DNA of 28,523 nt from an uncultured virus (IMG/VR IMGVR_UViG_2061766007_000171) (Duplodnaviria > Heunggongvirae > Uroviricota > Caudoviricetes). The DNA lies in IMG/VR virus record IMGVR_UViG_2061766007_000171, one strand, 5' to 3'. Made by a program: the position numbers and the translations under genes. This document shows positions 5,181 through 23,270 of the stretch, piece after piece; positions within the stretch are counted from its first letter, which is position 1, and each line of letters opens with the position of its first letter. The notes beneath the pieces were generated by a model that saw only the letters and a list, made by a program, of their open reading frames with translations, searched no databases and was not told the DNA's origin.

Positions 5181-5245
5181 TATATTATGGGCGAAATTGG
5201 GTCGCGGTTTTGGACGCCGCCCCCAATATTACAATGGCACCCCTT

Positions 5246-5335: not shown

Positions 5336-5355
5336 ATTGCAGTGAAAGGAATTAA

Positions 5356-5371
5356 AAATACAATTTATGAA
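5356..5371 (+). repeat. boundary motif copy 1 (AAATACAATTTATGAA)
   Basis: Core shared with five other copies. Confidence 0.75.
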
Positions 5372-5378
5372 ATATTTT

Positions 5379-5521
5379 TGCTCAATAATGAGCAGGAGCG
5401 ATACCAATCAGCAGTACGCACCAGTGTTCACCACCACCCACCACTACCCACGTGGTATGTGGTAAGGCGCGTGACCGTGCATAAAATACAGTTGATGAAG
5501 TATCAGTGCTCAGAAATGAGT
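5379..5521 (+). ncRNA. candidate structured RNA / 5' leader (rod-like hairpin)
   Basis: Nested pairings GATAC/GTATC, ATCAGC/GTTGAT, GCAC/GTGC, TCAC/GTGA, ACCAC/GTGGT, TACC/GGTA; flanked by two similar TGCTCA-N4-TGAG hairpins. Confidence 0.5.
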
Positions 5522-5547
5522 TGAATACGAAAGGAGTATGAAAGAAA

Positions 5548-6099
5548 ATGGCTAAGGAATCAGCTATCGAAATCGCCATCAAAAAAGGCGACGCACGCGC
5601 AATGGCAAAGGACGAAGTATACAACGAGGCCCCTGGCAACAGCATGGAGCCCGAACTGGCTACCCTGAATCTCAGGTACGACGGTTGCTACTACAATGAC
5701 AGGAAGACCCTGGAAAACGGCAAGGTCGACGGAGCGAACCTCAACGCCCGCTTCACCGTGATGAGCGGTAAGACCAAGGGAGCGAAGTTCCACGTGAAGG
5801 CTTACTTCCTCAAATCCAACAACGAGAAGGATGACTACACAACGAAGTTCATCCAGCAGTTGTGCCGTGCTCTTGACGGAAAATCGGACGCGCTGGATGA
5901 CAAGTCCCTTCTGGGAAAGGTCATCAACGCACGTGTCGCATATGACATCGATGTCAAGACCAGGAAGCCGAAAATCCTTGTCCAGAAACTGGATAACAAC
6001 ACCGAAAGGGTCGTCCACCTCTTCAAGGTCTTCGACGTCCGCCAGGCAGTCACCGTCGTCCAGTCCGTCTCTGGAGTCGCGGAGGAGATAGCCAACTGA
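5548..6099 (+). CDS. putative phage ssDNA-binding protein (DUF669-like OB fold)
   Basis: LNARFTVMSGKTKGAKF...IQQLCRALDG...LLGKVINARV resembles DUF669-type SSBs; AGGAG RBS; followed by a terminator. Confidence 0.55.
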   Translation: MAKESAIEIAIKKGDARAMAKDEVYNEAPGNSMEPELATLNLRYDGCYYNDRKTLENGKVDGANLNARFTVMSGKTKGAKFHVKAYFLKSNNEKDDYTTKFIQQLCRALDGKSDALDDKSLLGKVINARVAYDIDVKTRKPKILVQKLDNNTERVVHLFKVFDVRQAVTVVQSVSGVAEEIAN

Positions 6100-6103
6100 A
6101 ACC

Positions 6104-6129
6104 GAGGGGGAAACCCCTCTTCTTTTTTT
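6104..6129 (+). terminator. intrinsic terminator
   Basis: GAGGGG-GAAA-CCCCTC followed by TTCTTTTTTT. Confidence 0.8.
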
Positions 6130-6165
6130 ATTATGCAACCGAGCCCCTGGCAGATAGGAGTGTGA

Positions 6166-6552
6166 ATGAACATGAGTAAAATGGACAGAGAGACATCGTA
6201 CAGAATTGCAAAGAACGCATTGGAACTCATCAGAGATGATGACATCCTTGACACATGGATTGCGCTTTACGCGAACGGCGTGATGGATATGGTCAACCCC
6301 AACATGAAGAAGGAGCACTGCCAAATCGCCTACGCGGACGACGTCACAGACCTCCTGGACGAAATCATGTCCCAGTACGGAGGTGCACTCATCGAAGATG
6401 AGACACTGGACAATGCATTCGACCTAATCTGCTGGAAGTGTAACTCCATCATACAGGACACAATCCTGGAAGGTGAGGAATACACACGCTGGCTGAAGAA
6501 CAACATCGAAGGGCCCAAAATCAAGTTAGACCTTGAGAACGGATGGGCCTGA
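6166..6552 (+). CDS. hypothetical protein
   Basis: 128 aa; AGGAG RBS. Confidence 0.75.
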   Translation: MNMSKMDRETSYRIAKNALELIRDDDILDTWIALYANGVMDMVNPNMKKEHCQIAYADDVTDLLDEIMSQYGGALIEDETLDNAFDLICWKCNSIIQDTILEGEEYTRWLKNNIEGPKIKLDLENGWA

Positions 6553-6565
6553 TTTCACAGTGCTT

Positions 6566-6737
6566 GGGTGAGAGGATGTATTCGCACGATACACCAGCAG
6601 TAGGACTCAGCGACCGTCACAACAAGGTTGTGCTGGTATCCGACGGTCGTATAGCCCTGTCTTGCAGGTTGCCTTGCACTGACGTGCCGCGCTTCGCGCT
6701 TCCGGCAACCATGCTTTTAATTGGGTTCCTCTCACCC
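6566..6737 (+). ncRNA. candidate highly structured ncRNA with pseudoknot (family not recognised; strand assumed from context)
   Basis: Perfect 11-bp closing stem GGGTGAGAGGA/TCCTCTCACCC; internal stems GCGACCGTC/GACGGTCGT, GGTTGCC/GGCAACC, GCAC/GTGC, GCGC/GCGC; CCAGCA/TGCTGG pseudoknot. Confidence 0.7.
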
Positions 6738-6811
6738 TTCACAAACCCTTTCACAACAACCGAGCCCCGCTTAGCAGGGCTCACCACAGACAAGAATCTA
6801 AGGTGATTCAA

Positions 6812-7024
6812 ATGGACGCATTATACACACGCGTAGAGGCTCAGATGAATGAGAGGTTCCCGTTCGACAAGCCCCGTGCACTTGCCCTCACGGACGAAGT
6901 GACAAAGATCCTGGGAACCAACGTGAACGCCAAATGGGACAAGATGGGCGGTGAGCTGTTCTCATCATTCGTCGACGTCGCCATGGAGGACATCGCCAGG
7001 TACAACCCCTGGCTTCTGAGGTGA
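6812..7024 (+). CDS. hypothetical protein
   Basis: AGGTGA RBS before ATG 6812; 70 aa. Confidence 0.7.
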   Translation: MDALYTRVEAQMNERFPFDKPRALALTDEVTKILGTNVNAKWDKMGGELFSSFVDVAMEDIARYNPWLLR

Positions 7025-7028
7025 TACC

Positions 7029-7415
7029 ATGAAGGGAATATCGACTGAGACCTACTTCGACCTTCCTAAGGAAGTCGAGGAACATGTCGGCGATAGAACG
7101 GCTAAAGCTTACCTGAACTACAACAATGTCCGCGGGACATGCCCCTGGATGTGCGCATACGTCATCGTACCCCTCAAGGTCAGAGACGTCGAATGCCACG
7201 GCGGTGTCACATACGGCGAGGAAGATGTCACTGAATACAAGAACGAGATCCCTGGACACAGAGACGTCAAGATACCCAGAGGATATCACGTCATCGGATG
7301 GGATTTCGTTCATTACGATGATGACGAACTTCCCGTCGAGAAGGCAGTCGAATCCGTGAGAAGGACTCTTCAATGGATGATCGCACACAAGATCATCACC
7401 GCGGGGGAAGCATAA
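7029..7415 (+). CDS. conserved phage hypothetical protein (CHGG.TY...GWDF.H motif)
   Basis: CAYV...CHGGVTY...IGWDFVHYDD is a recurring phage/MGE motif; GAGGTGA RBS. Confidence 0.75.
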   Translation: MKGISTETYFDLPKEVEEHVGDRTAKAYLNYNNVRGTCPWMCAYVIVPLKVRDVECHGGVTYGEEDVTEYKNEIPGHRDVKIPRGYHVIGWDFVHYDDDELPVEKAVESVRRTLQWMIAHKIITAGEA

Positions 7416-7466
7416 CAACCGCCCCCCTTCGCTCAGCGACATGATCGGTTCACTGTGAACTTATTT

Positions 7467-7484
7467 TGAAATTCATTTTATGAA
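7467..7484 (+). repeat. boundary motif copy 2 (TGAAATTCATTTTATGAA)
   Basis: Directly upstream of the GAGGTG RBS of the gene at 7506. Confidence 0.7.
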
Positions 7485-7505
7485 ACATTTGTGAGGTGTT
7501 ATAGA

Positions 7506-7886
7506 ATGCCAGAAAACAAGGACAGAATATCTGTAAAAGAACTGAATGCAACCGCCAGGATCCTCATGGCCGCCGCCGAGGATATGGGTCACCCTGACCC
7601 GCACGCCTTCGCAGAGAAGTACGCGAACATGATCCCGCTCTTCTTCGGCTTCGAGCCCGTCAGAAGGATGGCCGCCGGTGACTTCTGTGTCATCGCGCTC
7701 GCTGTCAAGATGTGCATGATCATCGAAGATCCCGGCGTGAAGGAAGAGATGATCGAGCAATATGAGGATGCCCGTGCTAAGGCATATGCCCACGCAGCAT
7801 CCATAGGGATGACGCACGAGGACATAAAGCGCATGTCTGAGGACGACAGCGACGATGAGATAGACTTCGACGAGGAGGATGAATGA
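7506..7886 (+). CDS. hypothetical protein with acidic tail
   Basis: GAGGTG RBS then ATG 7506; C-terminus EDDSDDEIDFDEEDE. Confidence 0.75.
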   Translation: MPENKDRISVKELNATARILMAAAEDMGHPDPHAFAEKYANMIPLFFGFEPVRRMAAGDFCVIALAVKMCMIIEDPGVKEEMIEQYEDARAKAYAHAASIGMTHEDIKRMSEDDSDDEIDFDEEDE

Positions 7887-8334
7887 GATGAGACACCATG
7901 GTAATTGGATAATACACGACGGCAAAGTGAGTGTCTGGTGCGAGACATGCGGATACTCTATCGAACACGCTTGTACAGACAAGCAGGCAGAAATGATCGA
8001 GAACACACCGATCCAGGCAGTCTTCCCCGAACTCACTCCTGATGTGAACGAGATGTTCATCACCGGCCAATGCGGTCTGTGCTCATCACTGGGATACACG
8101 AAGATAACACCGAAGGCTGAGGAGAAGATCGTCAACGAGACCAAGGAGATCCTGGAGATATGCCATCTTCCTTTCACCGTCACCTCAGCAGAGGACTGCT
8201 ATCAGCTGAGCATCGACCTAAAGGACAACATAGATGACTGTGACTACAGGGATGCCTACGTGCTCATCAGGGAGAACATGAAGCGCGTCATCGATGACAT
8301 CTGGGCAGGCAAATACGGGGAGGTGGAAGCATGA
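7879..8334 (+). CDS. Zn-binding phage hypothetical protein
   Basis: CETC...IQAVFPELTPDVNEMFITGQCGLC motif; GGAGG RBS. Confidence 0.75.
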   Translation: MNEMRHHGNWIIHDGKVSVWCETCGYSIEHACTDKQAEMIENTPIQAVFPELTPDVNEMFITGQCGLCSSLGYTKITPKAEEKIVNETKEILEICHLPFTVTSAEDCYQLSIDLKDNIDDCDYRDAYVLIRENMKRVIDDIWAGKYGEVEA

Positions 8335-8711
8335 ATAATTTCGATGAGATCAAAGATCATCCGCTCACCAACGCCTTCAAGACCGTTGAAGTAGGAACAT
8401 ACGCTGAGATGTTCATGGTCAAAGCCTGCAACATCATCATCGGACTTCACGGAAAGAAGAATGCCTACGTCATTGAAGATAAGAATGACGTCAACGGACT
8501 TCTCCAAGAACTCTACATCGATGCGATAATCGGCAAGAACGTCGAGCTCTTCAAAGATATCTACGATGTTGTCAAAGAGACATTCATCGACATCCTTCAA
8601 GGCATGTACATCGAAGATGCACCTGCAGGATATCCGATCATGCAAGAGAAGATGGTAGATAACATGGTGGATGACTACATCCTCAACATCCTTCTGGAAG
8701 GCAAGTCATAA
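8331..8711 (+). CDS. hypothetical protein
   Basis: 126 aa; GGAGGTG RBS, ATGA overlap. Confidence 0.75.
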   Translation: MNNFDEIKDHPLTNAFKTVEVGTYAEMFMVKACNIIIGLHGKKNAYVIEDKNDVNGLLQELYIDAIIGKNVELFKDIYDVVKETFIDILQGMYIEDAPAGYPIMQEKMVDNMVDDYILNILLEGKS

Positions 8712-8759
8712 TTAAGCACTCGTTTAATTTAACAGCGTTTAATTAAGCCATCGTTTAAT
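8709..8759. repeat. iteron-like direct repeats (CGTTTAAT x3)
   Basis: Copies at 8721, 8736 and 8752; TAATTAAGC at 8709 and 8740. Confidence 0.6.
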
Positions 8760-8954
8760 CGTTCCCTTCCCCCATTCGCTTTATATATGATGTTCCTCTT
8801 TAACAAACTTTCAAACGCTTATCCCCGATCATTATATTTAAAGCGAACGGAAATTTCTTAACACCACTTAATTCGTTAAATGGTGTTGAAACATAGATGC
8901 TGTCACATGACTTCAATGAGAATATCAATTTTCATATACATAGCATCTATTTTC

Positions 8955-9075
8955 TTTCTACTTCTCTACAAATTCTACTGAATAATATATATTATGTGAA
9001 ATAATATACTCATACATTACTTATATAATAATCATTTTCTCTATTCCTTAGTAGAATATGTAGAAATGTAGAAGA
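8955..9075. repeat. imperfect 25-bp inverted repeat flanking an AT-rich spacer (origin-like)
   Basis: TTTCTACTTCTCTACAAATTCTACT (8955-8979) vs AGTAGAATATGTAGAAATGTAGAAGA (9050-9075). Confidence 0.65.
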
Positions 9076-9156
9076 TATACATACAATATATCTTTAATAC
9101 ATATACAAACTACTTAACAATCTAAATAACATTATTAACAACTGAGGTGTTATAAA

Positions 9157-10182
9157 ATGTCGAAAGATATACAAGATGGTCAGTCCATCACCACAAATTT
9201 ATCTGATGTCATCCCCAAGGGAATGACATTGAAGAAGGTATTCAACCACAACCGCTTGATCATCAAGTCATTCACCGTGAAAGGTATACTCGGCTTGGAT
9301 ACCACTGTGAACTTCGATGATCACATCACTAGCCTGACATCCTTAGGCTCGCAGGGGCGCACCAGATTCCTGAGATGCCTGCACGCATTCAGGATCATGT
9401 GCATCTGCAACAACTATGACATGCAGCCCGACATGATCTATGATAAGGTAGATGGACACAGCCGCATGTCAATGACTGTAACGACAGCGAACCCTGACGA
9501 CAGAGACTTCTCGATGACCGTGGATATCGAATTCATCAAAAGGCACAGTGACAGGACAGACGATGATTACTATCTCAACGCTATCACATGGACATTATAC
9601 GACTGTGACGGTGAGTGGGTACACTATGATGACATACACGACCCAGAATATGTCGATGATTTCTACGACTATGCCATCGCTGAGGTGAAGAGGTTCCTTG
9701 ATCACGGCATCGTTCAGACGATGGATGAGGCGATGTCATACCTCGGAGGGTTGCCGTATGATATCCTGAGTATCATAGGTGTACACGATCCGTCAGACAT
9801 ATCAGCGAACATCGGCCGCTTGATACCATGGCTATGCGTCTTTGCTGATGCTACGATGAACAGGACGATCATCCTTGACGATGTGTTCGACAGCATTCAT
9901 CCATGCGTGGTCATGAACATGACGGAGAAGATAGACAGTCAGTGTTCACTCGGAAGGAGACAAATGGTAATGTCATGCCGCAGGCCTGAGGGGCTGGTAG
10001 ATGACTCCGCTTGCTATGTGTTCAATGACGGCAAGGCTGTGAGAGTATCCCGTGAGTCACCGCATGAGCGCCTGTATCTGTTCGATGACAAAGACAGTAA
10101 CACTCTTACCAGGTGGATAGAGCATGTCAAGGACGGCAGTGTGTTCCAGAAAGTCAATGACATCATGGAGGTAGGACAATGA
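9157..10182 (+). CDS. degenerate ABC/AAA_21-like ATPase
   Basis: Layout of OLD/AAA_21 ATPases with altered motifs: SLGSQGRT (Walker A), IILDDVFDSIHP (Walker B/D-loop), QMVMSCRRP (H-loop). Confidence 0.65.
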   Translation: MSKDIQDGQSITTNLSDVIPKGMTLKKVFNHNRLIIKSFTVKGILGLDTTVNFDDHITSLTSLGSQGRTRFLRCLHAFRIMCICNNYDMQPDMIYDKVDGHSRMSMTVTTANPDDRDFSMTVDIEFIKRHSDRTDDDYYLNAITWTLYDCDGEWVHYDDIHDPEYVDDFYDYAIAEVKRFLDHGIVQTMDEAMSYLGGLPYDILSIIGVHDPSDISANIGRLIPWLCVFADATMNRTIILDDVFDSIHPCVVMNMTEKIDSQCSLGRRQMVMSCRRPEGLVDDSACYVFNDGKAVRVSRESPHERLYLFDDKDSNTLTRWIEHVKDGSVFQKVNDIMEVGQ

Positions 10183-10577
10183 CATTCATCATCAAGGTCG
10201 AGGATGTCATGACAGAGGACATGGTCAAGGGGAACATCGAGAGAATAGCCGAAACATACGAGCAGCTCAAAGCACAGGGCATAACATCAGAGACATGGGA
10301 ACACCCTCTTTGGAAAGAGCAGAGGAAGGCAGCGAAGAAGTTAGGCTATCAAATATACAAGGTGATGAAGCATGAGGACTTCAATGACAGGGACATCACA
10401 CTGATGCTCCGCGCAGTGCTTAGGCACCTGGGGAGGAAGGACATCAATGATTATGACGAGAGACTGACTGACATGCAATTGGACATGCTGGTCACGGCAC
10501 AGTATCTTGTGAAGAAGGTACTTGATGAGGTGGTCGCCGCCAGGATCGAAAGAGAGAATAAAGAGAACAACGCATGA
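10179..10577 (+). CDS. hypothetical protein
   Basis: 132 aa; GGAGG RBS, ATGA overlap. Confidence 0.75.
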   Translation: MTFIIKVEDVMTEDMVKGNIERIAETYEQLKAQGITSETWEHPLWKEQRKAAKKLGYQIYKVMKHEDFNDRDITLMLRAVLRHLGRKDINDYDERLTDMQLDMLVTAQYLVKKVLDEVVAARIERENKENNA

Positions 10578-10592
10578 AATTCAATTTATGAA
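10572..10592 (+). repeat. boundary motif copy 3 (GCATGAAATTCAATTTATGAA)
   Basis: Its TGA is the stop codon of the upstream gene. Confidence 0.8.
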
Positions 10593-10611
10593 ATATTATT
10601 GAGGTGTCGAT

Positions 10612-11247
10612 ATGGAAACAGAATACACTGTCAGACTCAACACGAAGTTCGGTTACTTCGAGCTCGGTACGACTGTCAATGAATCGGCGAAGAAAGTATT
10701 GGAAGATATCTTCTGGTACGTCGGTGACGAATGGTATGTACGCGACCCGCACTGTCAACGCGACTGTCACGACAAGACATATGTCATGCTGTTATGGAAG
10801 CGTGTGAACAAGAAAGGAACCGAAGTAGAATATATCAAGACGTATTCATGCAAGGCTTTCAAGAGACTTGATGAGATAAGATGTCAGAATGAAGTCGATC
10901 TCCTGAACACATTGAGCGGGAAGAAGTATGTATACATGGTCTTCCAGCCAAGTGATGAGGAGAAAGGTGCATACATCCCGACTGATTATGAACTGTACAA
11001 GGAGAAAACGTACGAACTCGAGAGGAAGTATGGAGCACTGAGAGAGTTCGTACCCATCTGGATACACAATGACGATGATGAATCCAGGTACTTCGACTGG
11101 ACGATAGATAACTTCGCCGAGTTGAATGGTTGCGATGAAGAGTTCATCAAGATGCTGAAACAGGCCAAAGTGAAATTCTTCAAGGACATACCGAAGGTAG
11201 AACCGATAACCATCAAAGACGGAGACAGAACGATAACATTCAGGTGA
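10612..11247 (+). CDS. hypothetical protein
   Basis: 211 aa; GAGGTG RBS. Confidence 0.8.
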   Translation: METEYTVRLNTKFGYFELGTTVNESAKKVLEDIFWYVGDEWYVRDPHCQRDCHDKTYVMLLWKRVNKKGTEVEYIKTYSCKAFKRLDEIRCQNEVDLLNTLSGKKYVYMVFQPSDEEKGAYIPTDYELYKEKTYELERKYGALREFVPIWIHNDDDESRYFDWTIDNFAELNGCDEEFIKMLKQAKVKFFKDIPKVEPITIKDGDRTITFR

Positions 11248-11252
11248 TAAAT

Positions 11253-11480
11253 ATGAGCGATGAAATGAAAGTGGAACAGAGGGTGGACTTCGCACTGATG
11301 CTCACGCATCTTTACGGAGCATTGGGTGAATTGAAATGCAGTGCATTCGCCATGCCGACAGCGATCACCGGCACGGAGGTAGCCTGTGATCTCACAGACA
11401 TCAAGAAAGCACTGGGTGAATTGACTGAGAAAATGCATACCAAGTACAAAGAGCTGTACTATCATGAGGGAGAGGAATGA
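11253..11480 (+). CDS. hypothetical protein
   Basis: AGGTGA RBS before ATG 11253. Confidence 0.7.
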   Translation: MSDEMKVEQRVDFALMLTHLYGALGELKCSAFAMPTAITGTEVACDLTDIKKALGELTEKMHTKYKELYYHEGEE

Positions 11481-11710
11481 GCTACATCATAGGTGTGTGC
11501 AACAGCGGGAATCCTGATGACATTCTCATGAGGGAATATGAATCGGATATGGATGTGCTGGATGCAGCGAGAGATGAACTGTGCTATGAGTTCGGCTATG
11601 TCTCCGATGCATTCGGTAACTTCAGGAACATGACCAAGTTCGAACTCATCGAGAAGGTCGAGAAGAATGGATGGTGGTTCATCAACGGCGAAGAGCAGGA
11701 GGGACACTGA
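11477..11710 (+). CDS. small acidic hypothetical protein
   Basis: 77 aa; ATGA overlap. Confidence 0.7.
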   Translation: MSYIIGVCNSGNPDDILMREYESDMDVLDAARDELCYEFGYVSDAFGNFRNMTKFELIEKVEKNGWWFINGEEQEGH

Positions 11711-12390
11711 TGGGAAAATGTTTCTATGCGACATCGTGGGAGAAACAGGACATAAACAAATCTGCGAATGAATTCATGAAAAAAGACGTGGACGATTATG
11801 AAAAGGACTATCAATGGGTCGCTGATCATTATGCCGAACGTGATCCGTGGATCAACAAAAGAGGATTGACATATAATGCAGCATGTTACATCGTCAGGGA
11901 TAACATGAGAAGTTTGGATCCGATGATAGATATCAATGATGCTAAGATAGCTGTCAACGGCCAGTTGCTCAGGGACACGATGCATGACATGAAGATACCT
12001 GAGCCATTGATACCGAGTCCTATGTGGGCAGAGCTGTTCACAACTGTCCTAGTACCTTCATGGTTATTCAGGAACAAGGAATATGCATCACAGGAACTGC
12101 ATGATGTGACCTTCAATTGTCCTGTATACTTTGAAGAGGATGATAGGAAAGCGATCATCGGAGGAGAAGCATGTCACTATGACACAACAGCGAACAGGAC
12201 ACATAAAGGATGGAAGATCTACAACACCATATACATCGAATGGTCTTACAGATATCATATAGCAATGCCTGATTGGTTCAGTAAGAAGAACAGATACATG
12301 GCAGTATCAAAGGATGGAAAGGTGATAGACGACTGGAACCTGGCAGACATAAAGAATAACATCAATGAATATCTGAACGGAAGAGCATGA
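11710..12390 (+). CDS. hypothetical protein (paralog of 20050-20637)
   Basis: GGAGG RBS, TGATG overlap; KGWKIY...YMAV...NL..IK C-terminal module. Confidence 0.75.
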   Translation: MGKCFYATSWEKQDINKSANEFMKKDVDDYEKDYQWVADHYAERDPWINKRGLTYNAACYIVRDNMRSLDPMIDINDAKIAVNGQLLRDTMHDMKIPEPLIPSPMWAELFTTVLVPSWLFRNKEYASQELHDVTFNCPVYFEEDDRKAIIGGEACHYDTTANRTHKGWKIYNTIYIEWSYRYHIAMPDWFSKKNRYMAVSKDGKVIDDWNLADIKNNINEYLNGRA

Positions 12391-12405
12391 AATACAATTT
12401 ATGAA
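12385..12405 (+). repeat. boundary motif copy 4 (GCATGAAATACAATTTATGAA)
   Basis: Its TGA is the stop codon of the upstream gene. Confidence 0.8.
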
Positions 12406-12458
12406 TTTGTATTGAAACCATTTAATATAAAATAAAATAAAAAAATTGGAGGAATTTT

Positions 12459-14033
12459 ATGAGCGAATTTGGGAACTTTGTAAAAGGAGTAATGAACGAT
12501 CTTGAGAAGAGAGAATCTCTCGAGAAGAAAGAGAAGAAAGAGAAGGTCATCACATACAAGTGTGACTCTTCTGGTATCGACATGGCAGTGACCCGTGTGC
12601 TGAACGGCAAGGACACCAGGACATTGGTGCTTCTTCTGTCACAGCTCGATGACAATGGGAAGCCTGTCATTCTCATGAAGGAGAAGGACAAGGTGCTCGA
12701 GGTCACAGAGAATAGTCTGAGGTCATTCCTTGATGGTGCTGATCCATTCATCGTCACAGGATGCACAGCAATCCCTTACCTGAGGAAAGGAAAGGAATTC
12801 GTCGAGACACTCTGGGATGTCATCCACAGCAAGAACTTCATCAAGCTTGCAAAGATGGGCGTGATCGATGTTGAATGCATAATAGAGTTGAACAACCGCA
12901 GCGACAGTCCATGGTACCTCGGAGGATATGACAGATACAGCAGTCTCATGCCTCGTATCAATAAGATGACTGAAGAGATGTTCAACAATGTGCATCCGAA
13001 GATCGTCAAATATGCTGTGAACTACATGATGGAGACATTCGATATGACATACAACAAAGCACTCCAGCATGTATACAGGAACAATGGCAGCGGAGGATAC
13101 TACAGATCTGTGATCGAAGTGGAAAGCGGAAAAAAGTATGTCATGAATGACAGCATAACAGCATTCGTAGCCATCGCTAATAGATACGATGAACCGTTTG
13201 CACTTCAATGCATGGAGGAATACATGAACGATCTGAACCTCATCGGCCTGAAAGGAGAGAGCGTCGACACGATGCTTAGGATCAAGACAGATGGTGTGTT
13301 CACAAAGGACAACTGGGGAACGAAGCGTGGAGAGTATGCAGGATCATCACTCATATACAACGGACGTTCACAAGTCATCGAGAGGCTTGCTGTGAACTTC
13401 GAGAAGAGAAGGTTCTGGGAGTACATCCTCAATGCAACATGCGTTGGAAAGGGCAGAGATCTGAATGGATATGTCACGCTGTGGAGAGACTACATCGAGA
13501 TGGCAATGACAACAGACAAGAAGATCAGAGAGAAGTATCCTGAATACCTCCAGGTAGAACACGACAAATACAGTGAGAAATACGACTTCATCAAGAATAC
13601 TGTCGAAGAAGAGGCACTGATGAAAGTCACCGAGAGGGCATCGAAGATATGTGATGTGAACACCAAGGACTATCAGTTCCGTATCCTCAGATCACCTCAG
13701 GCATTCTGTGATGAGGCTGCACAGAACTCAAACTGTGTCGCATCATATGTATCGAAGTGTGCTGCAGGCGTGACATACGTCGGTTCATTCAGGCAGAAGG
13801 ATTCTGAGACAACACTGCTCACTGTAGAGATCGATCCGAATACCTTCAAGATGATCCAGATCAGAGGTAAGTTCAACAGGATGGCAACGCCAAAAGAAAT
13901 GGAAGAGCTGAACAAGGTAGCCAAGAAGATCGATGCGAGATGGAAGAAGTTCCTTGACACTGGGAACATTGAGGAGGACAAAGAAGAGAAGATAGAGATG
14001 CCTACCTTGGACATCTTCGTCAAGGAGGAATGA
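12459..14033 (+). CDS. PcfJ-like domain protein
   Basis: LWRDYIEMA...YPEYLQVEHD...EAAQNSNCVASY...SFRQ...LTVEI...IQIRGKFN matches the PcfJ C-terminal domain. Confidence 0.8.
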   Translation: MSEFGNFVKGVMNDLEKRESLEKKEKKEKVITYKCDSSGIDMAVTRVLNGKDTRTLVLLLSQLDDNGKPVILMKEKDKVLEVTENSLRSFLDGADPFIVTGCTAIPYLRKGKEFVETLWDVIHSKNFIKLAKMGVIDVECIIELNNRSDSPWYLGGYDRYSSLMPRINKMTEEMFNNVHPKIVKYAVNYMMETFDMTYNKALQHVYRNNGSGGYYRSVIEVESGKKYVMNDSITAFVAIANRYDEPFALQCMEEYMNDLNLIGLKGESVDTMLRIKTDGVFTKDNWGTKRGEYAGSSLIYNGRSQVIERLAVNFEKRRFWEYILNATCVGKGRDLNGYVTLWRDYIEMAMTTDKKIREKYPEYLQVEHDKYSEKYDFIKNTVEEEALMKVTERASKICDVNTKDYQFRILRSPQAFCDEAAQNSNCVASYVSKCAAGVTYVGSFRQKDSETTLLTVEIDPNTFKMIQIRGKFNRMATPKEMEELNKVAKKIDARWKKFLDTGNIEEDKEEKIEMPTLDIFVKEE

Positions 14034-14461
14034 GCATGCAGCTTCTGCTGAAGTACGATGCATACGACGATGAATATCCAGAAGATCAATACATAGAAGT
14101 CGACAACGAGCTTGATATACTACTCGAGCGGATCTTCGAAAGATATGAGGGCATTCAATTCGAAGGATACCTGGGAAGATGGGATGGCCCGCAGGCTGTA
14201 GAAGCAAAGACCTGGAACATCAACACAGCGAAAAGGATTATAGTCAACCATGATATCTTCGAACTTTGGTATGCCGATGATGACACAGATGTCTCTGAAC
14301 TTCAAAGATATTCTGAGCAGTGGTCGATGCATGTAGAAAAAGGATGCATGCTTCTCAAACAATGGCATCATGACGGGTGTAACATCCTAGCACTGAAACC
14401 ATTAGGAGAGAAGCTGAACATGACATTTGCACCAGAGGAAGTGGGAATATATGGCGAGTGA
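14030..14461 (+). CDS. acidic hypothetical protein
   Basis: 143 aa; GGAGG RBS; GRWDG and HHDG motifs. Confidence 0.75.
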   Translation: MSMQLLLKYDAYDDEYPEDQYIEVDNELDILLERIFERYEGIQFEGYLGRWDGPQAVEAKTWNINTAKRIIVNHDIFELWYADDDTDVSELQRYSEQWSMHVEKGCMLLKQWHHDGCNILALKPLGEKLNMTFAPEEVGIYGE

Positions 14462-14520
14462 AGAACTCAAAACAAACAACCTTAAAAAATAAAACAAAAA
14501 AAACAATCGAGGTAAAACAC

Positions 14521-15337
14521 ATGACAACAATTAGAACAGATGATGAGCTTAAAGAAGTCTTCAATGAAGTAGGAAAGGGATATGAGTTTGAAGTAAAAAA
14601 AGCAGAGTTCATTCCGTTTGCTGATTTCAAAGTCACATGGGAAGGAAACCGCGGAACAAGAGAAATCAAATTCAAGGTATCCGACTACGCAATGAACATG
14701 GACAAAGAGAACATCGAGGTACTTGCTGAGATGATGTTCAGAAGGATCGATAACAAAAGTGTCGAAGGTGAATACAAAGACAAATTCAACAAGACAATAT
14801 TAGAAGAGAACTTCTCTACAATGAACAGACCATTCTACATAGAGAGAAAGAAACTTGAGAAGGTTCCTTTTAAGGTATACAAAGGAGTGTATGTCCATTG
14901 GAGTAAAGTCGGAATGTTCAACGCAGGGTTCATATCGACATTGATGAAAGTCATCGCACTGAATCCTGAACTGAAGAATGCCCCTGATGATATCGTTGAA
15001 ACTGTCATCAAAATGCAGTACAACAGGATACAGGATGGGATACTAAGCTTCGGTGGAGAATCGAAACAAGTAGAGATACCTTGTGATGAGTTACTNNNNN
15101 NNNNNTGGATTCATATCAACATTGATGAAAGTCATCGCACTGAATCCTGAACTGAAAAATGCTCCTGATGATATCGTTGAAACTGTCATCAAAATGCAAT
15201 ACAACAGAATACAGGATGGGATACTGAGCTTCGGTGGAGAATCGAAACAAGTAGAGATACCTTGTGATGAGTTACTGAAGACAAAAAAATGGCTTGTGAA
15301 TAATGATCTCAGACTCAATGAAGACTTATTCAACTAA
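14521..15337 (+). CDS. M48/YgjP-like protein lacking HExxH (interrupted by an assembly gap/duplication)
   Basis: AEFIPFADFKVTW...FKVSDY...RPFYIER...STLMKVIALNPEL...DDIVETVI; GAGGT RBS; ~170 bp duplicated across N-gap 15096-15105. Confidence 0.6.
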
Positions 15338-15376
15338 ACCCCTTTGCTTATCTTCTTTTTATTGGAGTTGATTAGT

Positions 15377-16398: not shown

Positions 16399-16798
16399 TC
16401 CAACAGACATAGAACTCAGAGAGAACTGTGAAAGGATACGTGATGAACTTGAGAAGTTCGCCTGTGGATATCTATATGACACTGAGACAGGTGAGATGGT
16501 ACGTGCTGAGGACTTAACTGATCCTGATTATGATGAAGAAAGATACCAAGATTTCTACACATATTATCTCACAGACAACCTAGGTATCAAAGTAACACAC
16601 GATATCCAATCACCAGATGAACTCTATTCTTGTTCAATATGCGTTGCCTGGGGTGGGCCTAACATCTACATCGACACATACACAGAGTGTGTCGAAGGAT
16701 ACTGGGGATACAGCGGAAGAGCCTCAGCTTCGTTCTCAAAGAGAGTTACCGAGATGATAGACAGTGAAATAGAAGATATCATGTTCTGTTACAGGTGA
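16399..16798 (+). CDS. duplicate (alternative haplotype) 3' part of the gene at 15377-15904
   Basis: Near-identical sequence beginning right after N-gap 16389-16398. Confidence 0.5.
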
Positions 16799-16799
16799 T

Positions 16800-17316
16800 A
16801 TGATGAGTTCAAAACTGAATGGCAAAGACAAACTGGAAGACACATTCTACCATGACGGTGATGATCGCAGTGATTCCTGGACAGGATACTTTTCTACCTA
16901 TACAAAGAATATATTCGTCTACCTTCAGGAATCGGAGCAAGCNNNNNNNNNNTAAACTGGAAGATACATTCTACCATGACGGTGACGATCGCAGTGATTC
17001 CTGGACAGGATACTTCTCTACCTATACAAAGAATATATTCGTCTACCTTCAGGAATCGGAGCAAGCCCCGACAAAAGAAGATCTTCAAAGAAATCCAGAA
17101 TATTGTGGCTGTGTGAACTTTGAACTCTATAGTATCAGGAAATTCAGAAGCGGATCAACATACAAATACAATATTCAAGGAGGCTACTTCTTATACACCA
17201 AAGACACGACATTCATGGAACTGTGTGATTATATCTCCAGTGATACAGGATATGTGATCGATACCAAATTACTTGGCACGAAGAAAACTGAAGTTGAAAA
17301 CATGGAGGATTATTGA
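16800..17316 (+). CDS. hypothetical protein (MMSSKLNGKDKLEDTFY...; interrupted by gap/duplication)
   Basis: AGGTGA RBS; the frame is restored once the duplicate across N 16943-16952 is collapsed. Confidence 0.65.
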
Positions 17317-17318
17317 AC

Positions 17319-17600
17319 ATGACCAGATACATAGTATACACATTTTATGGTCTTTATACATTGACAAAAGAGATCGCTGATAAAGAAGACATCATAGATG
17401 AATTCGGCTGCATCCCGAATGGTCGTGTAGAAGATCGTGAACGTTATATGAAATGTATCAAACTTACTAGGAATAACATGCGTAGATTCACCATCGATGA
17501 AAGGGATATTCCCTTTTCAGAGACTGTCCCCGATTTCGATAACATGTCTAAGAATATTCAAAAGAAATTCAAATATGAATGGTCAGAAAGGAGTTGGTAA
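17319..17600 (+). CDS. hypothetical protein
   Basis: GGAGG RBS; about 93 aa. Confidence 0.7.
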   Translation: MTRYIVYTFYGLYTLTKEIADKEDIIDEFGCIPNGRVEDRERYMKCIKLTRNNMRRFTIDERDIPFSETVPDFDNMSKNIQKKFKYEWSERSW

Positions 17601-17601
17601 A

Positions 17602-18194
17602 TTGATATTCTATCAAGTAAAACATATCATACCGCCTGAGAACATCGAAATGTTTGGCGTCAAAGGAGTATGGTCACCATGCAGACTATCCGATTATGTC
17701 GGGGGACTGACAGAGGATGATGAAGATATATCATACAACAGACTGAGATTCGATCTGTCTGACAATCCTGAGTTCGATGTAGATCACATCGATCTTCTAA
17801 TCGAGGACATGATCGATGACAACGGCAATGCACTTGCAACATTCGCTGTTGACAATATACTTCAAAAAAGCAGTGAGACATACATCTGCTTCGAAGACAC
17901 GCCGACACTTCGCCATGAACTGGAGATGCTGTGCTATTGGTACAGCTTCGATAAANNNNNNNNNNGAATCACATCGATCTTCTGATCGAGGACATGATCG
18001 ATGACAACGGCAATACACTTGCAACATTCGCTGTTGACAATATACTTCAAAAGAGCAGCAAAACATACATCTGCTTCGAGGACACGCCGACACTTCGCCA
18101 TGAGCTAGAGATGCTATGCTACTGGTACAGCTTTGATAAAAGATCGTGGTACGAAGAACTCGGGCGTGAAATACAATTTATGAATTATGAATGA
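17602..18194 (+). CDS. acidic hypothetical protein (interrupted by gap/duplication)
   Basis: AGGAG RBS, TTG start; duplicated segment across N 17956-17965. Confidence 0.6.
18164..18184 (+). repeat. boundary motif copy 5 (GCGTGAAATACAATTTATGAA)
   Basis: Lies within the last codons of the upstream ORF, just before the next gene block. Confidence 0.8.
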
Positions 18195-18226
18195 AACTTT
18201 TTATAATATTCGTGGAGGAATATAGA

Positions 18227-18851
18227 ATGGCAAAGAAGAATGTAGAGGAAATGATCCTCGCAAGACTGAATGAGATCGCAGATCTCAACGAAGAGAACGA
18301 AGGCATCAAGCGCGAGAGCTCGACTCTCAAAAGATTGATCAAGAATACAGATCGCATATCCTCATTGATCACCGAGGTCGATGAGCTTATGGCTGAGCGT
18401 GATATTACGACACCGATCTCATCGCGTGACGGAACATTCACAGCATACAAGAAGAGAATCGGTAAAAGCGGCGTCGACATGGATGCTATCTTACAGACAG
18501 GACTATTCATGTGGTTCGCAAAGAATCATCCTGAATGTCTTGAGCTTAATCTCAAGAAAGCAGAGATGGTCACCGGCCTCGACCTGAGTGCGTACGCAAA
18601 GAGACAAGCGTATGATATATACACTGTCTCGAAGGATGAAGACTACAGATATATCGCTGAACTTCTNNNNNNNNNNACTCAATCTCAAGAAAGCAGAGAT
18701 GGTCACCGGCCTCGACCTGAGTGCATATGCAAAGAGACAGGCATATGACATATACACTGTCTCGAAGGATGAAGACTACAGATATATCGCTGAACTTCTT
18801 AGTGATTACCATGATGAAATGGCTGAGAAAGAAGCGGGATACCAAGGATGA
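18227..18851 (+). CDS. hypothetical coiled-coil protein (interrupted by gap/duplication)
   Basis: GGAGG RBS; duplicate across N 18667-18676. Confidence 0.65.
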
Positions 18852-18861
18852 AGGGAAGACC

Positions 18862-19089
18862 ATGGATGGGAATGGTCTTCCAAAATGTCCTGTTTGTAAT
18901 TGTCAGCATACGAAATGTGAAAAGGTTACCGGTCTTGAACATGATAAGATGAGACATGTATGTTATGTCTTCACTCTTTATCACTGTCTTGATTGTAATC
19001 ATTGGTTCACTATCAAGGAGGAGAAAGATGAATGGGATCGTATCGAAATTGAAAAACAAATTGAAGAACAAAAATCAAAGCAAGTATGA
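18862..19089 (+). CDS. small zinc-ribbon protein
   Basis: CPVC...CLDC. Confidence 0.65.
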   Translation: MDGNGLPKCPVCNCQHTKCEKVTGLEHDKMRHVCYVFTLYHCLDCNHWFTIKEEKDEWDRIEIEKQIEEQKSKQV

Positions 19090-19228
19090 TCTTGAATGTG
19101 ACAAACTTCTTACGTGTGATGAATGCGGATTTAAAGGAAAGACAAAAGGATACTGGGGCTATTACGGAACCAAGTTCTGTTGTCCCATGTGTCTTAACAA
19201 ACATATGAAAAAGGAGATGGAAAGATGA
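19028..19228 (+). CDS. small zinc-ribbon protein (start uncertain)
   Basis: CDECG...CCPMC; ATGA overlap with the next gene. Confidence 0.5.
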   Translation: MNGIVSKLKNKLKNKNQSKYDLECDKLLTCDECGFKGKTKGYWGYYGTKFCCPMCLNKHMKKEMER

Positions 19229-19401
19229 CAACAAGCTGTCCGTGCTGCGGCGGTTCTGATTTCGATTGCGTTGAAAGAGACTATGATCTTAATGAATATC
19301 TCTATGAATGCAATGATTGTCATTGCTTATTCATAATAAGAGAAGAGATCGAGATAGTAGAAGAAGGAAAATTATATGATGATAAAGAGGAGGAAGATTA
19401 A
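19225..19401 (+). CDS. small acidic zinc-ribbon protein (58 aa)
   Basis: Hand-translated MTTSCPCCGGSDF...YECNDCHCLF...; AGGAG RBS. Confidence 0.7.
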   Translation: MTTSCPCCGGSDFDCVERDYDLNEYLYECNDCHCLFIIREEIEIVEEGKLYDDKEEED

Positions 19402-19713
19402 ATGGGAGAAAGAGTAGGCATAGCAATAGTGGATAAGGATGGTGAAACATCACCCATCATCATACAGAGTCATTATCTTGGAAGGAAACTTCTGGGATAT
19501 GCTCAGCAGTTCATGAACGAAGTCAAAGATAATGATCGCTTCATGCGTGAAGATTGTTATGTGCATCGTATTATAGCAATGTTCATCATGTGGCTTTATG
19601 AGAAGGGATATGATAAACTTCATCATGATCTTTGCATTCAGTTAGATGAAGATGGGGATACAGAAGATCATGGTATCTTCGAAATGAACTTCCAGGAGAT
19701 GACTGTATCATGA
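19402..19713 (+). CDS. hypothetical protein
   Basis: 103 aa; GGAGG RBS. Confidence 0.75.
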   Translation: MGERVGIAIVDKDGETSPIIIQSHYLGRKLLGYAQQFMNEVKDNDRFMREDCYVHRIIAMFIMWLYEKGYDKLHHDLCIQLDEDGDTEDHGIFEMNFQEMTVS

Positions 19714-20045
19714 GTCGTGGAAAAGCCATGTCAAAAGAAACATATGAACTCGCTATAAAAATGATGGAAACAGAAAATATCGGCGTTACAGAAGCAGCCA
19801 AGAGGGTAGGGGTAAGTTATAATACGCTTTATGCCGCCATAAAAAGAGGATCTAATCTTCCAAAACCCAGATATAAAGAATACAAAGGAACAATATTATC
19901 TGATACAGTCTCATTCAGATTCGATCCGAAAGAACAAAAGATCTTTATTGTCTGCGGTTTAAGAGAGATATCTATGAATAAAGAAGAATTTATAGATAAA
20001 ACAATGGTCATGCTGAATCTACTTGAAAAGATGGATGAAATGTGA
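19710..20045 (+). CDS. helix-turn-helix protein
   Basis: IGVTEAAKRVGVSYNTLYAAIKR. Confidence 0.75.
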   Translation: MSRGKAMSKETYELAIKMMETENIGVTEAAKRVGVSYNTLYAAIKRGSNLPKPRYKEYKGTILSDTVSFRFDPKEQKIFIVCGLREISMNKEEFIDKTMVMLNLLEKMDEM

Positions 20046-20049
20046 TAAC

Positions 20050-20637
20050 ATGTGTCCGGAAACAATGCTTACGATCACCAGATGTGATAAGGCAACAGCA
20101 AAGCTCATGGCAGACAACGCACTCAACCGCAGTCCGGAATGGTTCTACGAAACATACGGTGTACTCTGGCCAATGAAATGGTTCTCATCGATCATTGCAT
20201 TCTTCGTATGGGATGAGCTGAGATACATGGGTGCTGCTGCACAGACAGTCAGCGGTTGCAAGGAACGCATGACTATCGATCGTATCAGAAGAAGATATGA
20301 TGCAGCTGAACTTCCGGCAGATCTGTGGATCGGAGACACAACTGTCGACATGCTCATCAACACATTCCTTGTCGCATTCATTGACAATGGATACGGCGTC
20401 GATGAAGAGGATGATGATATTACGATGGAAGAATTCAATGCTGAGACTTACTACAAGATTCGCGGCGAGCTCTGCAAGCTTCATCTCAAAAAACCATACA
20501 AAGGATGGAAGATCTATCGTGCCTGGAATGTGAATGAAGGACATGGAAAGATGAAATACTTCGCCGTCAAAGATGATGAGATACTTTCGGCAAGGAATCT
20601 TTCCGGGATCAAGGATGAGGTATCGAAGGTGAGCTGA
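20050..20637 (+). CDS. hypothetical protein (paralog of 11710-12390)
   Basis: YKGWKIY...YFAV...NLSGIK; start uncertain. Confidence 0.75.
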   Translation: MCPETMLTITRCDKATAKLMADNALNRSPEWFYETYGVLWPMKWFSSIIAFFVWDELRYMGAAAQTVSGCKERMTIDRIRRRYDAAELPADLWIGDTTVDMLINTFLVAFIDNGYGVDEEDDDITMEEFNAETYYKIRGELCKLHLKKPYKGWKIYRAWNVNEGHGKMKYFAVKDDEILSARNLSGIKDEVSKVS

Positions 20638-20831
20638 TGAGATACAACAGCTTGGTATTACCGAGAGGATTCTCTGTAACAGTTGATGCTGATTCTCCGG
20701 AGGAAGCAGAGGAATTGATTAGACAATATGTCATCGAGAACTGTATCTGTACTCTTCAAAGAACAGATGATACATACGATGCTGAGAATCTTCTTGATGA
20801 ATTCGATGTAGTCGATACAACGGAGTGGTAA
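20637..20831 (+). CDS. small acidic protein, DpnD/PcfM-like pattern
   Basis: VTVDADSPEEAEE; AGGTGA RBS. Confidence 0.65.
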   Translation: MRYNSLVLPRGFSVTVDADSPEEAEELIRQYVIENCICTLQRTDDTYDAENLLDEFDVVDTTEW

Positions 20832-20832
20832 T

Positions 20833-21198
20833 ATGGGTTACTATAATGATGTAGTCATTCAGATAGATAAGAAGAATCGTAAAAGATTTGAGGATTACCT
20901 CAATTCTGATTATACGATAACTGATCGCGTACTTGATAACCAATATGTGATAAAAGAGACATCAACAGGATATCTTGTATACATCTGGATGAACGATCAT
21001 CAGCTCAGAGTCTCAGCAAGAAACCATTATTTCAGTCTTGAATACGAGATGGAAAAAGCCGGTTTCGAATTAGAGGATTACGTTGCTGAGATGTGGGAAG
21101 AAGATGGAGATCATCAATACGCCGGTAAGATGGACATAGCATATTATGTCCAAATGAACGCGTTTGTATATGATGAAAGAAAAGGAGAGTGGGTATAA
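20833..21198 (+). CDS. hypothetical protein
   Basis: 121 aa; MGYYNDV start; GGAG RBS. Confidence 0.75.
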   Translation: MGYYNDVVIQIDKKNRKRFEDYLNSDYTITDRVLDNQYVIKETSTGYLVYIWMNDHQLRVSARNHYFSLEYEMEKAGFELEDYVAEMWEEDGDHQYAGKMDIAYYVQMNAFVYDERKGEWV

Positions 21199-21294
21199 GT
21201 AGATTATATATACATCTAATGCATACATGGTAGTGTTACACTACGTAACTAAACATATTAAGAAACATATTAAATTCCAAACGGAGGAATAGAA

Positions 21295-21795
21295 TTGTTA
21301 GCAAGCTACACAATAAGAAAGTCAGTCAATGTGCCTGACGTTATCGGACTGAATGTGAACGACAAAGTCAAGATGATCGACTGTGTGACAACACAGAATG
21401 CATATCTCGGAGACATCGTAGCAAAATACACAGCAGAACTCAAAGAGAGATACTGCATTCGTATCAACATCATCGCTACAAAGGAAAATGAATACGAGAT
21501 CAGTGTCCTCAAGAGTAGTAATATGGATGATCTTTCAGATTATTCATATGATGATTATGACGATGAAGACGATGATGACTACTACGGTATCAACGATTGC
21601 AGTGAAGAGATCTTCTGCGAGACAGCATCTGCAGATAAAGTCGTAGAGGTTCTCGGCGATGCCTGTGCATACATCGAGAAATCTGTAAAAGCATGTCACG
21701 CTTGGGAAAAGAAGTGTGAGAAGAAAACAACAGCGGATGATTTCCTCAAGAGACTCAAGAAGATCATCGATGCGACTTTGGAGGATAACGAATAA
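21295..21795 (+). CDS. hypothetical protein with central Asp/Tyr tract
   Basis: GGAGG RBS, TTG start; DYSYDDYDDEDDDDYY. Confidence 0.75.
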   Translation: MLASYTIRKSVNVPDVIGLNVNDKVKMIDCVTTQNAYLGDIVAKYTAELKERYCIRINIIATKENEYEISVLKSSNMDDLSDYSYDDYDDEDDDDYYGINDCSEEIFCETASADKVVEVLGDACAYIEKSVKACHAWEKKCEKKTTADDFLKRLKKIIDATLEDNE

Positions 21796-21840
21796 ACTCT
21801 TTCAACAAACTTTTTACTTTTTATTCACAAGAGGGATAAA

Positions 21841-22152
21841 ATGGGACACTGGGAAGAAGAAGGGGACAATGAGGTCTGGTACTGTGATGAGAATGAGATG
21901 CTGCAGCAAGCCATAGGCAATTATGGTAGCACCTGTGATTTCGATGACTGGGTAATGAATACATATAGTCTTGAAGACTTGATCGATCTTGCTGTCGGAT
22001 ACGAGACATCGGATGAAGTATGGGACGATCTGGCAAAGGCATATGAAGATTCATTGCTTCAAGAAGCCGGGCCCGCCATCAAAGGACAGGACTACTGTGT
22101 CTACAATGTCAATTACATCTGGGTAGATGATGATGGCGAAGATGATGAATAA
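21841..22152 (+). CDS. highly acidic small protein (paralog of 27403-27729)
   Basis: MGHWE...DFDDW...VW.D...EDS...DY...WVDD. Confidence 0.75.
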   Translation: MGHWEEEGDNEVWYCDENEMLQQAIGNYGSTCDFDDWVMNTYSLEDLIDLAVGYETSDEVWDDLAKAYEDSLLQEAGPAIKGQDYCVYNVNYIWVDDDGEDDE

Positions 22153-22194
22153 ACAATTTAATAAAAACCATAAACAAACAAAGGAGAATTAAAT

Positions 22195-23235
22195 ATGCTG
22201 ATCGACAAAGATAAGACCGGTAAACAGATAAAGAAACTCGAGAGACAGACTGGAATCGCTGCGATATTCCATAATAACAATTTCAAGGAAATGGACGTCA
22301 ATAGCATCTATGATGCTTATGTCCAAGAATTCAAAGAGAAGATCGTCGAAGGAGCGATCTATTCTACATTGAAAGACATGTATGACAAAGGATACCTTAC
22401 AAGAGAAAGACGCACGGTCAANNNNNNNNNNGATAACAATTTCAAGGAAATGGACGTCAATGGCATCTATGATGCTTATGTCCAAGAATTCAAAGAGAAA
22501 ATCGTCGAAGGAGCGATCTATTCTACATTAAAAGACATGTATGACAAAGGATACCTTACAAGAGAAAGACGCACGGTCAAAAGATACATCAATGGACATC
22601 CTAAAGATGTCAGTGTGATCTTCTACAGACCTACAAGACAGCTTCAAGAACTTCATAATGAATCAAGGAAACTGATCGACAAAGTATCAAATGAGATCGA
22701 TGGTGTGAAACCAGAACTCGACCTGGTACCAGAAGATCAGAAATCCAGACCGGCATTCAATACACCTTCTATGTTATCTGAGAAGGAAGCCGAGATCCAA
22801 AAGATGCAGGATAAGATCGACAAGGTACAGGAGATCTGTAAACCTGTAGAAAAAGAGAAAGAGACAAAGAAGAAGATAGAGGACATGCTGAACACGATGT
22901 CGACCGGCGAAGCTCTTGTCAAACTCTATCAGGGATACAGGATCGTGTCAGCCGTGTCAGGGAATGTCTACGTGATCATGGACAAGAAAGGTATCACCTG
23001 CTCGCTGCACCCCGGTGAGATAATCACGACATTCCCTGCCAATGAGATGGAAGGAGTATGGAGACTCCTGGAAGACCCCAAGCCGTGTCCGTATTGCGGT
23101 TCGAGTGTCAAGCTCATTCAGCCTTCTGACAAGGTCGTCTCATATTACATGTGTGAGAATGTATCCTGTCGTGCAAAAGGCCCGCTTGGTACAACGCCGG
23201 AGGAAGCTCTTCGCAAGCATAATACCAGAGCATGA
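22195..23235 (+). CDS. multidomain protein with C-terminal Lar-like Zn finger (internal gap/duplication)
   Basis: KPCPYCG...CENVSCRAKGP...EEALRKHNTR; AGGAG RBS; duplicate across N 22422-22431. Confidence 0.7.
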   Translation: MLIDKDKTGKQIKKLERQTGIAAIFHNNNFKEMDVNSIYDAYVQEFKEKIVEGAIYSTLKDMYDKGYLTRERRTVXXXXDNNFKEMDVNGIYDAYVQEFKEKIVEGAIYSTLKDMYDKGYLTRERRTVKRYINGHPKDVSVIFYRPTRQLQELHNESRKLIDKVSNEIDGVKPELDLVPEDQKSRPAFNTPSMLSEKEAEIQKMQDKIDKVQEICKPVEKEKETKKKIEDMLNTMSTGEALVKLYQGYRIVSAVSGNVYVIMDKKGITCSLHPGEIITTFPANEMEGVWRLLEDPKPCPYCGSSVKLIQPSDKVVSYYMCENVSCRAKGPLGTTPEEALRKHNTRA

Positions 23236-23250
23236 AATACAATTTATGAA
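23230..23250 (+). repeat. boundary motif copy 6 (GCATGAAATACAATTTATGAA)
   Basis: Its TGA is the stop codon of the upstream gene; ATACAATT/AATTGTAT dyad. Confidence 0.8.
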
Positions 23251-23270
23251 TTGTATGTGGAGGTTCTGTA

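Follow-up and report, generated by a model that had tools for sequence, protein, structure and literature searches.

A motif of about 30 nt recurs seven times, always on the + strand, in the 28,523-nt stretch of DNA analysed here (the window), which comes from an uncultured virus (IMG/VR IMGVR_UViG_2061766007_000171; Caudoviricetes). We hold it probable that this motif is a virus-specific promoter/operator which heads early transcription units, is packed onto the stop codons of upstream genes and moves with the gene downstream. As such it would most likely add a new case to the early regulatory repeats that are conserved in archaeal viruses. The analysis is limited to the window, a piece of a larger element: the contig of the source run continues 8 kb beyond its left end. 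A first-pass annotation of the same DNA had offered two readings of six such sites, namely crossover sites resembling dif, cer or integron sites, and a promoter or operator. On present tests the feature is not a dif/cer or integron system, and the promoter/operator alternative appears to fit best among the readings considered.

All six sites were recovered in place on the + strand, together with a degenerate seventh at 5479, also on the + strand, which had been overlooked. The copies, numbered 1 to 7, occupy 5351–5381, 5479–5509, 7464–7494, 10572–10602, 12385–12415, 18164–18194 and 23230–23260. A search with a 17-nt core allowing at most three mismatches gave seven matches in the window, 7/7 on the + strand, whereas the same search in 100 shuffles gave a mean of 0.52 and a maximum of 3, none of them (0/100) reaching seven. 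With a weight matrix the copies score 25–45 bits (36.9 for copy 1, 25.3 for copy 2) against 11.4 for the next match in the window, and leave-one-out matrices still recover every strong copy. The core of the motif as previously described thus stands, while its length had to be revised to a true extent of about 30 nt. The layout is bipartite: (GCRTG)AAATWCAWTTTATGAA, containing the 16-nt core, is followed by a stretch of seven AT-rich bases and by TG at motif positions 29–30, one helical turn on. This TG is invariant in 7/7 copies; copy 1 consists of the core plus TG and lacks the GCRTG left part. At the 3′ end of the core lies the TATA-like octamer TTTATGAA, found six times on the + strand, each time within a motif copy, and once on the − strand. 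Just upstream of it, at the place expected for the transcription factor B recognition element (BRE), there is a short imperfect dyad, TGAA-A-TWCA.

The copies stand at the starts of gene blocks, on the sense strand, in the rightward arm of the window. According to our gene models this arm has 47 gene junctions, 14 with gaps of at least 20 nt and 33 tight ones; motif copies occur at five of the wide gaps and at none of the tight junctions, and two further copies lie in the 5180–5548 gap. As previously reported, three ATGs lie close behind TTTATGAA, the distance from its first letter being 29 nt for the ATG at 7506, 27 nt for that at 10612 and 28 nt for that at 23271; elsewhere the distance is 61, 50 and 56 nt (ATGs at 12459, 18227 and 5548, the last being measured from copy 2). 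The TGA at 10575, 12388 and 23233, in copies 4, 5 and 7, is indeed the stop codon of three genes, which end in Asn-Ala, Arg-Ala and Arg-Ala respectively, and copy 6, as noted before, overlaps the final codons of a gene that ends at 18194 and is interrupted by an assembly gap. The downstream flanks form three groups. Copies 3, 4 and 7 are followed by a Shine-Dalgarno (SD) sequence, which in the case of copy 3 is GAGGTG and directly adjoins the motif, and by an ATG at motif positions 41–43. Copies 5 and 6 are followed by TGAAAC, an AT-rich leader and GGAGG, and copies 1 and 2 have a 38-nt repeat in common, 79% identical. The existence of these subfamilies suggests duplicated promoter-plus-leader units.

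Contigs of four sequencing runs were aligned to window positions 1–14900, a range that takes in copies 1 to 5; the comparison rests on 12 listed joints, on 32 pieces out of 179 and on 24 loose ends out of 130. Run X5, from a separate study, is collinear with the window across the copies at 5351, 5479, 7464 and 10572, at about 92–96% identity. The corresponding spans are 5281–7188 (copies 1 and 2), 7206–9794 (copy 3; 203 differences) and 10278–11048 (copy 4; 43 differences, no gaps). This collinearity favours the promoter reading, since it resembles the position conservation described for the HF2 repeats in the consulted part of PMC8707807. The position of the motif is kept in X5 and differs at 10572 in five records; as judged from the protein tails of relatives, it is probably also kept at 12385 and 23230.

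The three stop-codon fusions have different histories. The Lar-domain gene that ends on copy 7 (22195–23235, +, with an assembly gap inside) has the same end column in 10/10 relatives of 42–94% identity, so the domain ends natively at this stop; the last residue in these relatives is A in four, V in two, C in two, T in one and I in one. The gene ending on copy 5 (11710–12390, +) has relatives 48–89% identical, of which five out of six are Ala-terminal although the residues before the Ala vary, a pattern consistent with an old, stable overlap with the motif. The gene upstream of copy 4 (10179–10577, +) ends in Asn-Asn-Ala, and here the tail differs: the five other members of its cluster (86–89% identical) all end in Glu, without the Ala-stop tail, with endings that include EGDPDE, EGDSDE, KESDE and KKVEE. 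Read back from protein, such Glu tails would encode an SD sequence and a GAATGA stop/start overlap. Gene content therefore varies at one boundary, as the first-pass annotation had guessed, and since the tail of the upstream gene is changed in 5/5 relatives, the change at 10572 lies upstream of the motif and outside it. The gene behind copy 4 (10612–11247, +), whose 90% cluster holds itself and one near-identical fragment and nothing else, may form with the motif a moron-like insert. The following gene (11253–11480, +) starts M-S-D-E-M-K-V, and the S-D-E near its start, with which two relatives of gene 10179 end, is possibly the displaced tail of that gene. This repeat suggests that the motif and gene 10612 were inserted into the tail of gene 10179, with the caveat that the window letters read through S-D-E without a stop, one base off. 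The motif thus appears to travel with its downstream gene.

These data bear directly on the recombination reading, in which the copies are tyrosine-recombinase crossover sites (Xer/dif, cer, pdif or integron-like) splitting the arm into exchangeable cassettes, and which we regard as highly improbable. In its favour, the copies are in direct orientation, the 8-bp central part is near-identical in four of the six strong ones, and CATGA and TTATG bear a short likeness to the bacterial dif arms as quoted in the first-pass annotation; its left arm CATGA is exact in three of the six strong copies and reads CGTGA in a fourth. As described in the consulted parts of PMC8371274 and PMC2958812, dif sites of archaea and bacteria occur in single copy and consist of a pair of 11-nt inverted arms separated by 6 nt. 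What the motif has in common with sites of the Xer/dif, cer and pdif kinds is a few letters, CATRA and TTATG, on either side of a short centre; it differs from them by its seven dispersed copies and by the lack of 11-bp inverted arms. With the 8-bp parse proposed earlier, 3–6 of 11 arm positions are paired per copy (30/66 in total), a 6-bp parse gives 33/66, and the best common register pairs 36/66 compared with 35.4 in column shuffles, 184 of 400 of which do as well, so that no 11-6-11 or 11-8-11 dyad emerges beyond composition. Conservation is lopsided and continues through the supposed spacer. Integron attC sites carry R″/R′ boxes, RYYYAAC...GTTRRRY, plus a long imperfect hairpin. At 7/7 copies there is no attC box pair, and the copies have no common hairpin. 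The recombinase gene whose search had been proposed was not found either, no tyrosine recombinase being present among the 60 window proteins (Pfam, PHROGs). Nor, apart from one ambiguous joint in run X7 (discussed below), do breakpoints in these contigs fall on the motif as envisaged, X5 being collinear over four copies and the polymorphism at 10572 lying outside the site, whereas a crossover in the motif would keep the upstream gene tail. No go-back (circle-type) joint occurs among the 12 joints listed, bearing in mind that assembled contigs lose rare variants, so that rare circles could escape. A new archaeal cassette system is not established by the motif.

Ordinary recombination offers another explanation, in which the motif is conserved mainly as homology patches resembling the promoter early stem-loops (PeSL) of T4-type phages, the blocks being deleted, inserted and exchanged through them. 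Beside the polymorphic junction at 10572, it can call on X5, from which gene 3892–4641 is missing. The X5 joint falls on a 14-nt repeat belonging to a second motif, of TATA type, which shows that deletions in this virus can end on promoter repeats. It can also call on one contig of run X7, which joins 5377 to 7556 and in which 21 letters match copy 1. This X7 joint could represent a motif-to-motif deletion between copies 1 and 3; with only 21 letters on one side, it is equally explained by an orthologue of copy 3 nearer to the consensus. Among the 14 X7 contig ends listed, four come within 40 nt of a copy, compared with none in the listed X5 and X10 pieces, a proximity that was noticed post hoc, at depth 3–7 and in AT-rich spacers, and is not used as evidence. 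The identity between copies extends over only 16–21 nt, no conserved stem-loop or terminator accompanies them, and the placement of the 10572 change and the collinearity of X5 argue here as they do against site-specific recombination. Moreover, GC content at third codon positions along 3892–28306 declines gradually from 0.7–0.8 near the divergent region to 0.3–0.5 further along the arm. It shows no steps where the motif stands, and there is no motif at one of its largest steps, near 14460–14520. As the main reason for conservation we therefore find this explanation quite unlikely; a secondary role of this kind is possible by analogy. Unlikely too, in our view, is an RNA-level site on a long early message, bound by an RNA-binding protein or nuclease for processing, anti-termination or translational control. 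A variant of it has a chain of mini open reading frames (mini-ORFs), M-K-Y/F-N/I-L-stop and then a four-codon ORF, with ATGA overlaps by which ribosomes are handed from block to block. The constant sense strand and the location directly after stops and before SD sites agree with such a role, which would also account for the retained SD sites and the non-canonical box; for the variant, the start codon of the first mini-ORF is present in five of the six strong copies and the stop of the second, at positions 29–31, in four of the six. Yet there is no common RNA fold (z-scores from +0.28 to −2.47, with helices differing from copy to copy) and no Rfam match at any copy. What positions 29–30 conserve is TG and not a stop codon, the triplet being TGC, TGC and TGG in three of seven copies; the variation in the mini-ORFs is non-synonymous, the last stop is not kept, and a ribosome relay would need no fixed sequence.

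In the promoter/operator reading that we prefer, the motif would combine a promoter core and an adjacent protein-binding site, heading units of the accessory and presumably early arm. TBP and TFB would be recruited to the non-canonical box, probably with the help or under the control of a viral DNA-binding protein, and all blocks would be switched together. Transcripts would start near motif position 40–44, hence be almost leaderless for three genes and carry short SD leaders for the remaining ones, and the SD sites would also let read-through messages be translated. That the motif is fused with stop codons would reflect genome compaction, the TGA being part of the binding sequence. The site would belong to the downstream gene and come or go with it, in the manner of a moron, by recombination outside the motif. 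The single strand orientation, the location at block starts and the 27–29 nt between box and ATG for three genes all speak for this proposal. In leaderless archaeal genes the distance from box to start is about 26 nt, and 11/11 Thermoplasmata fall in that group in the consulted part of PMC6028130. In addition, conservation acts at the DNA level, since the two core positions that vary, 10 and 13, would each be the second letter of a codon in the embedded mini-ORF.

Several observations weigh against this proposal. Nine of the 14 wide gaps have no motif, in run X10 a different sequence precedes gene 10612 with no motif directly upstream, and the X7 joint described above counts on the same side. 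The octamer TTTATGAA fits the methanogen TATA consensus TWTATATA, as given in the consulted part of PMC2699501, at only six of eight positions, and five other sites in the window do have a canonical TTATATAW box. A box at −30 puts the starts 1–3 nt inside the three nearest ATGs, and the sole internal control of leaderless appearance (3861) lies 31 nt from its ATG, 2–4 nt farther. Good SD sites, needless for leaderless messages, precede the three proximal genes and render the −10 region GC-rich. Finally, no regulator was identified, the candidates at 4842–5180, 3892–4641 and 19710–20045 having weak helix-turn-helix matches only. The first of these, a small protein (+) encoded beside the divergent promoter region, with HTH_20/ArsR matches below the cut-off, is a candidate regulator. 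It is on account of the non-canonical box, the short spacing and the SD sites that we propose a viral helper protein and keep an RNA-level role in view. In a stricter version, which we advance only tentatively as a minor possibility, the motif would need a virus-encoded activator and be unusable by the host machinery alone, as TTTATGAA, the dyad and the TG may hint; the blocks would then form a temporal ‘middle’ regulon, and units of promoter plus gene would also pass from strain to strain as morons or by recombination from motif to motif. A scan for sigma-70 promoters in the window was uninformative (49 sites, 42.5 in shuffles).

These features recall repeats known from other archaeal viruses, here compared through the consulted parts of the sources. 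For the class I repeats of HF2 (Haloferacalesvirus), seven of which lie in the early/middle arm, promoter activity has been proven (PMC8707807). Like the motif, the class I/II repeats are AT-rich, intergenic, co-oriented and about seven in number, and stand in the early/middle arm among genes of no known function; their core words are unique to the repeats and their position is kept among relatives (PMC8707807), and the core of the motif is likewise unique. HF2 repeats are 58 or 29 bp long and demonstrably active, their TATA box and start site having been mapped, whereas the motif spans about 30 nt and is a putative promoter; unlike them, it has a G in its TATA-like box and frequently overlaps an upstream stop. 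Rudiviruses and others possess virus-specific early-gene motifs, in some of which the BRE is covered by an inverted repeat (PMC11065993), as in SMV2. In viruses of the SIRV2 type such a motif is common to unrelated small genes, as here; a viral helix-turn-helix regulator has been proposed, and the downstream genes are candidate anti-defence genes (PMC11065993). The SIRV2-type motifs have a consensus TTTAWATA box and a purine-rich BRE, mostly serve single genes and belong to viruses of Sulfolobales (PMC11065993); the motif, by contrast, has TTTATGAA as its box and stands before blocks of several genes in a probable virus of methanogens. The T4-type PeSL (PMC2839356) and the TATA-plus-inverted-repeat units of HGTV-1 (PMC3950731) are, as here, repeated units of promoter-like character among small genes in a variable region, with gene content differing in their vicinity, the motif being distinct from PeSL by far fewer copies and by the lack of a conserved stem-loop or terminator. 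The motif was not found described in the literature searched, in which coverage of subscription papers is incomplete. Motif scans of viral (one locus; three loci) and metagenome (seven loci) collections returned no locus with credible similarity to the window; the matches were dismissed as chance, ten being single copies and L006 alone having a second match, with two mismatches. If it is an early signal, the motif would mark the transcription units of a lineage of rumen-methanogen viruses for which we found no close public genome, and the genes downstream would be candidate anti-defence genes by the logic of PMC11065993, as far as the consulted part goes. Studies of how viruses are transcribed in Methanomassiliicoccales would also gain a short sequence that can be tested.

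The element of the window is probably a virus of Methanomassiliicoccales. This host is proposed because of archaeal PCNA matches, the rarity of TAG and three genes matching Caudoviricetes sp. vir335 (BK063680, whose record gives Methanomassiliicoccales as the host); ‘virus’ is itself inferred, no capsid or terminase gene being present in the window. The leftward arm contains genes for a glutaredoxin, a Lar protein and a divergent PCNA-like sliding clamp (1293–2021, −), by which the element is recognised as archaeal. The best PCNA matches come from archaea, except for one top entry, a eukaryote-type fusion. The clamp family has 26 representatives at 50% identity, five of the 24 aligned ones match PCNA_N, and searches of viral and genome collections turned up no member. 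The rightward arm, from about 3900, comprises around 50 small genes, mostly of no known function, with PcfJ, GP88, Lar and HNH domains among them. TAG accounts for one of 58 stop codons in the window; in M. alvus, which uses pyrrolysine, it represents 1.6% of stops (PMC4153887, consulted in part). The metagenomes carrying the sequence are from bovine gut wherever labelled; no RNA run is among the carriers listed, which says nothing about expression. Three of 60 window proteins match vir335: a Zn-ribbon gene at the head of the leftward arm (41.5% identity), a GP88 gene in the rightward small-gene arm (30.7%) and an HNH gene (39.4%). The vir335 genome is without the motif, having in 83 kb a single match to the 16-nt core, with three mismatches. 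Searches with five queries and a distant PCNA homologue gave no confirmed relative in viral contigs, and none was confirmed in genome contigs.

Other observations concern the neighbourhood of these genes. In vir335 the Zn-ribbon ORF is unannotated (BK063680 60675–60863; L012 27605–27793) and is 41.5% identical to window gene 2018–2305. The second repeated motif of the window is a palindromic AATATATT running into a TATA box, at 3789–3802 and 4796–4809, with related sites near 2307, 5178 and 8985; the X5 joint on this AATATATT repeat would correspond to a promoter-bounded gain or loss of gene 3892–4641. The first gene of the arm (5548–6099, +) encodes possibly a single-strand-binding protein, a weak DUF669 match being obtained with one of four homologues (E 0.02). 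In the gap 6552–6812, positions 6589–6692 (+) match the full Rfam model of the RT-5 RNA (RF03026) with 53.2 bits, compared with a gathering threshold of 45.7, and this match covers most of the ‘unrecognised RNA’ noted earlier at 6566–6737; no reverse transcriptase and no tRNA were found in the window. The 445-nt AT-rich gap 8711–9157, without a motif copy, contains the inverted repeats 8956–8996/9033–9073 and 8772–8795/8827–8850 and is a possible origin or strong bidirectional promoter. The adjacent protein (9157–10182, +) has no Pfam match of its own; atlas features (0.97) and structure indicate an AAA_21/AbiEii-like ATPase fold, and it is possibly a degenerate copy acting as counter-defence. 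Between 15096 and 22431 there are seven N gaps whose flanks are 91–99% identical duplicates; these look like scaffolding artefacts of co-occurring strains and not real tandem repeats. Finally, an AAACYYYTT-like word follows several gene ends (4760, 6742, 8800, 15337 and 21795) and recurs in the intergenic regions of vir335, where as here it is possibly a lineage-wide terminator signal.

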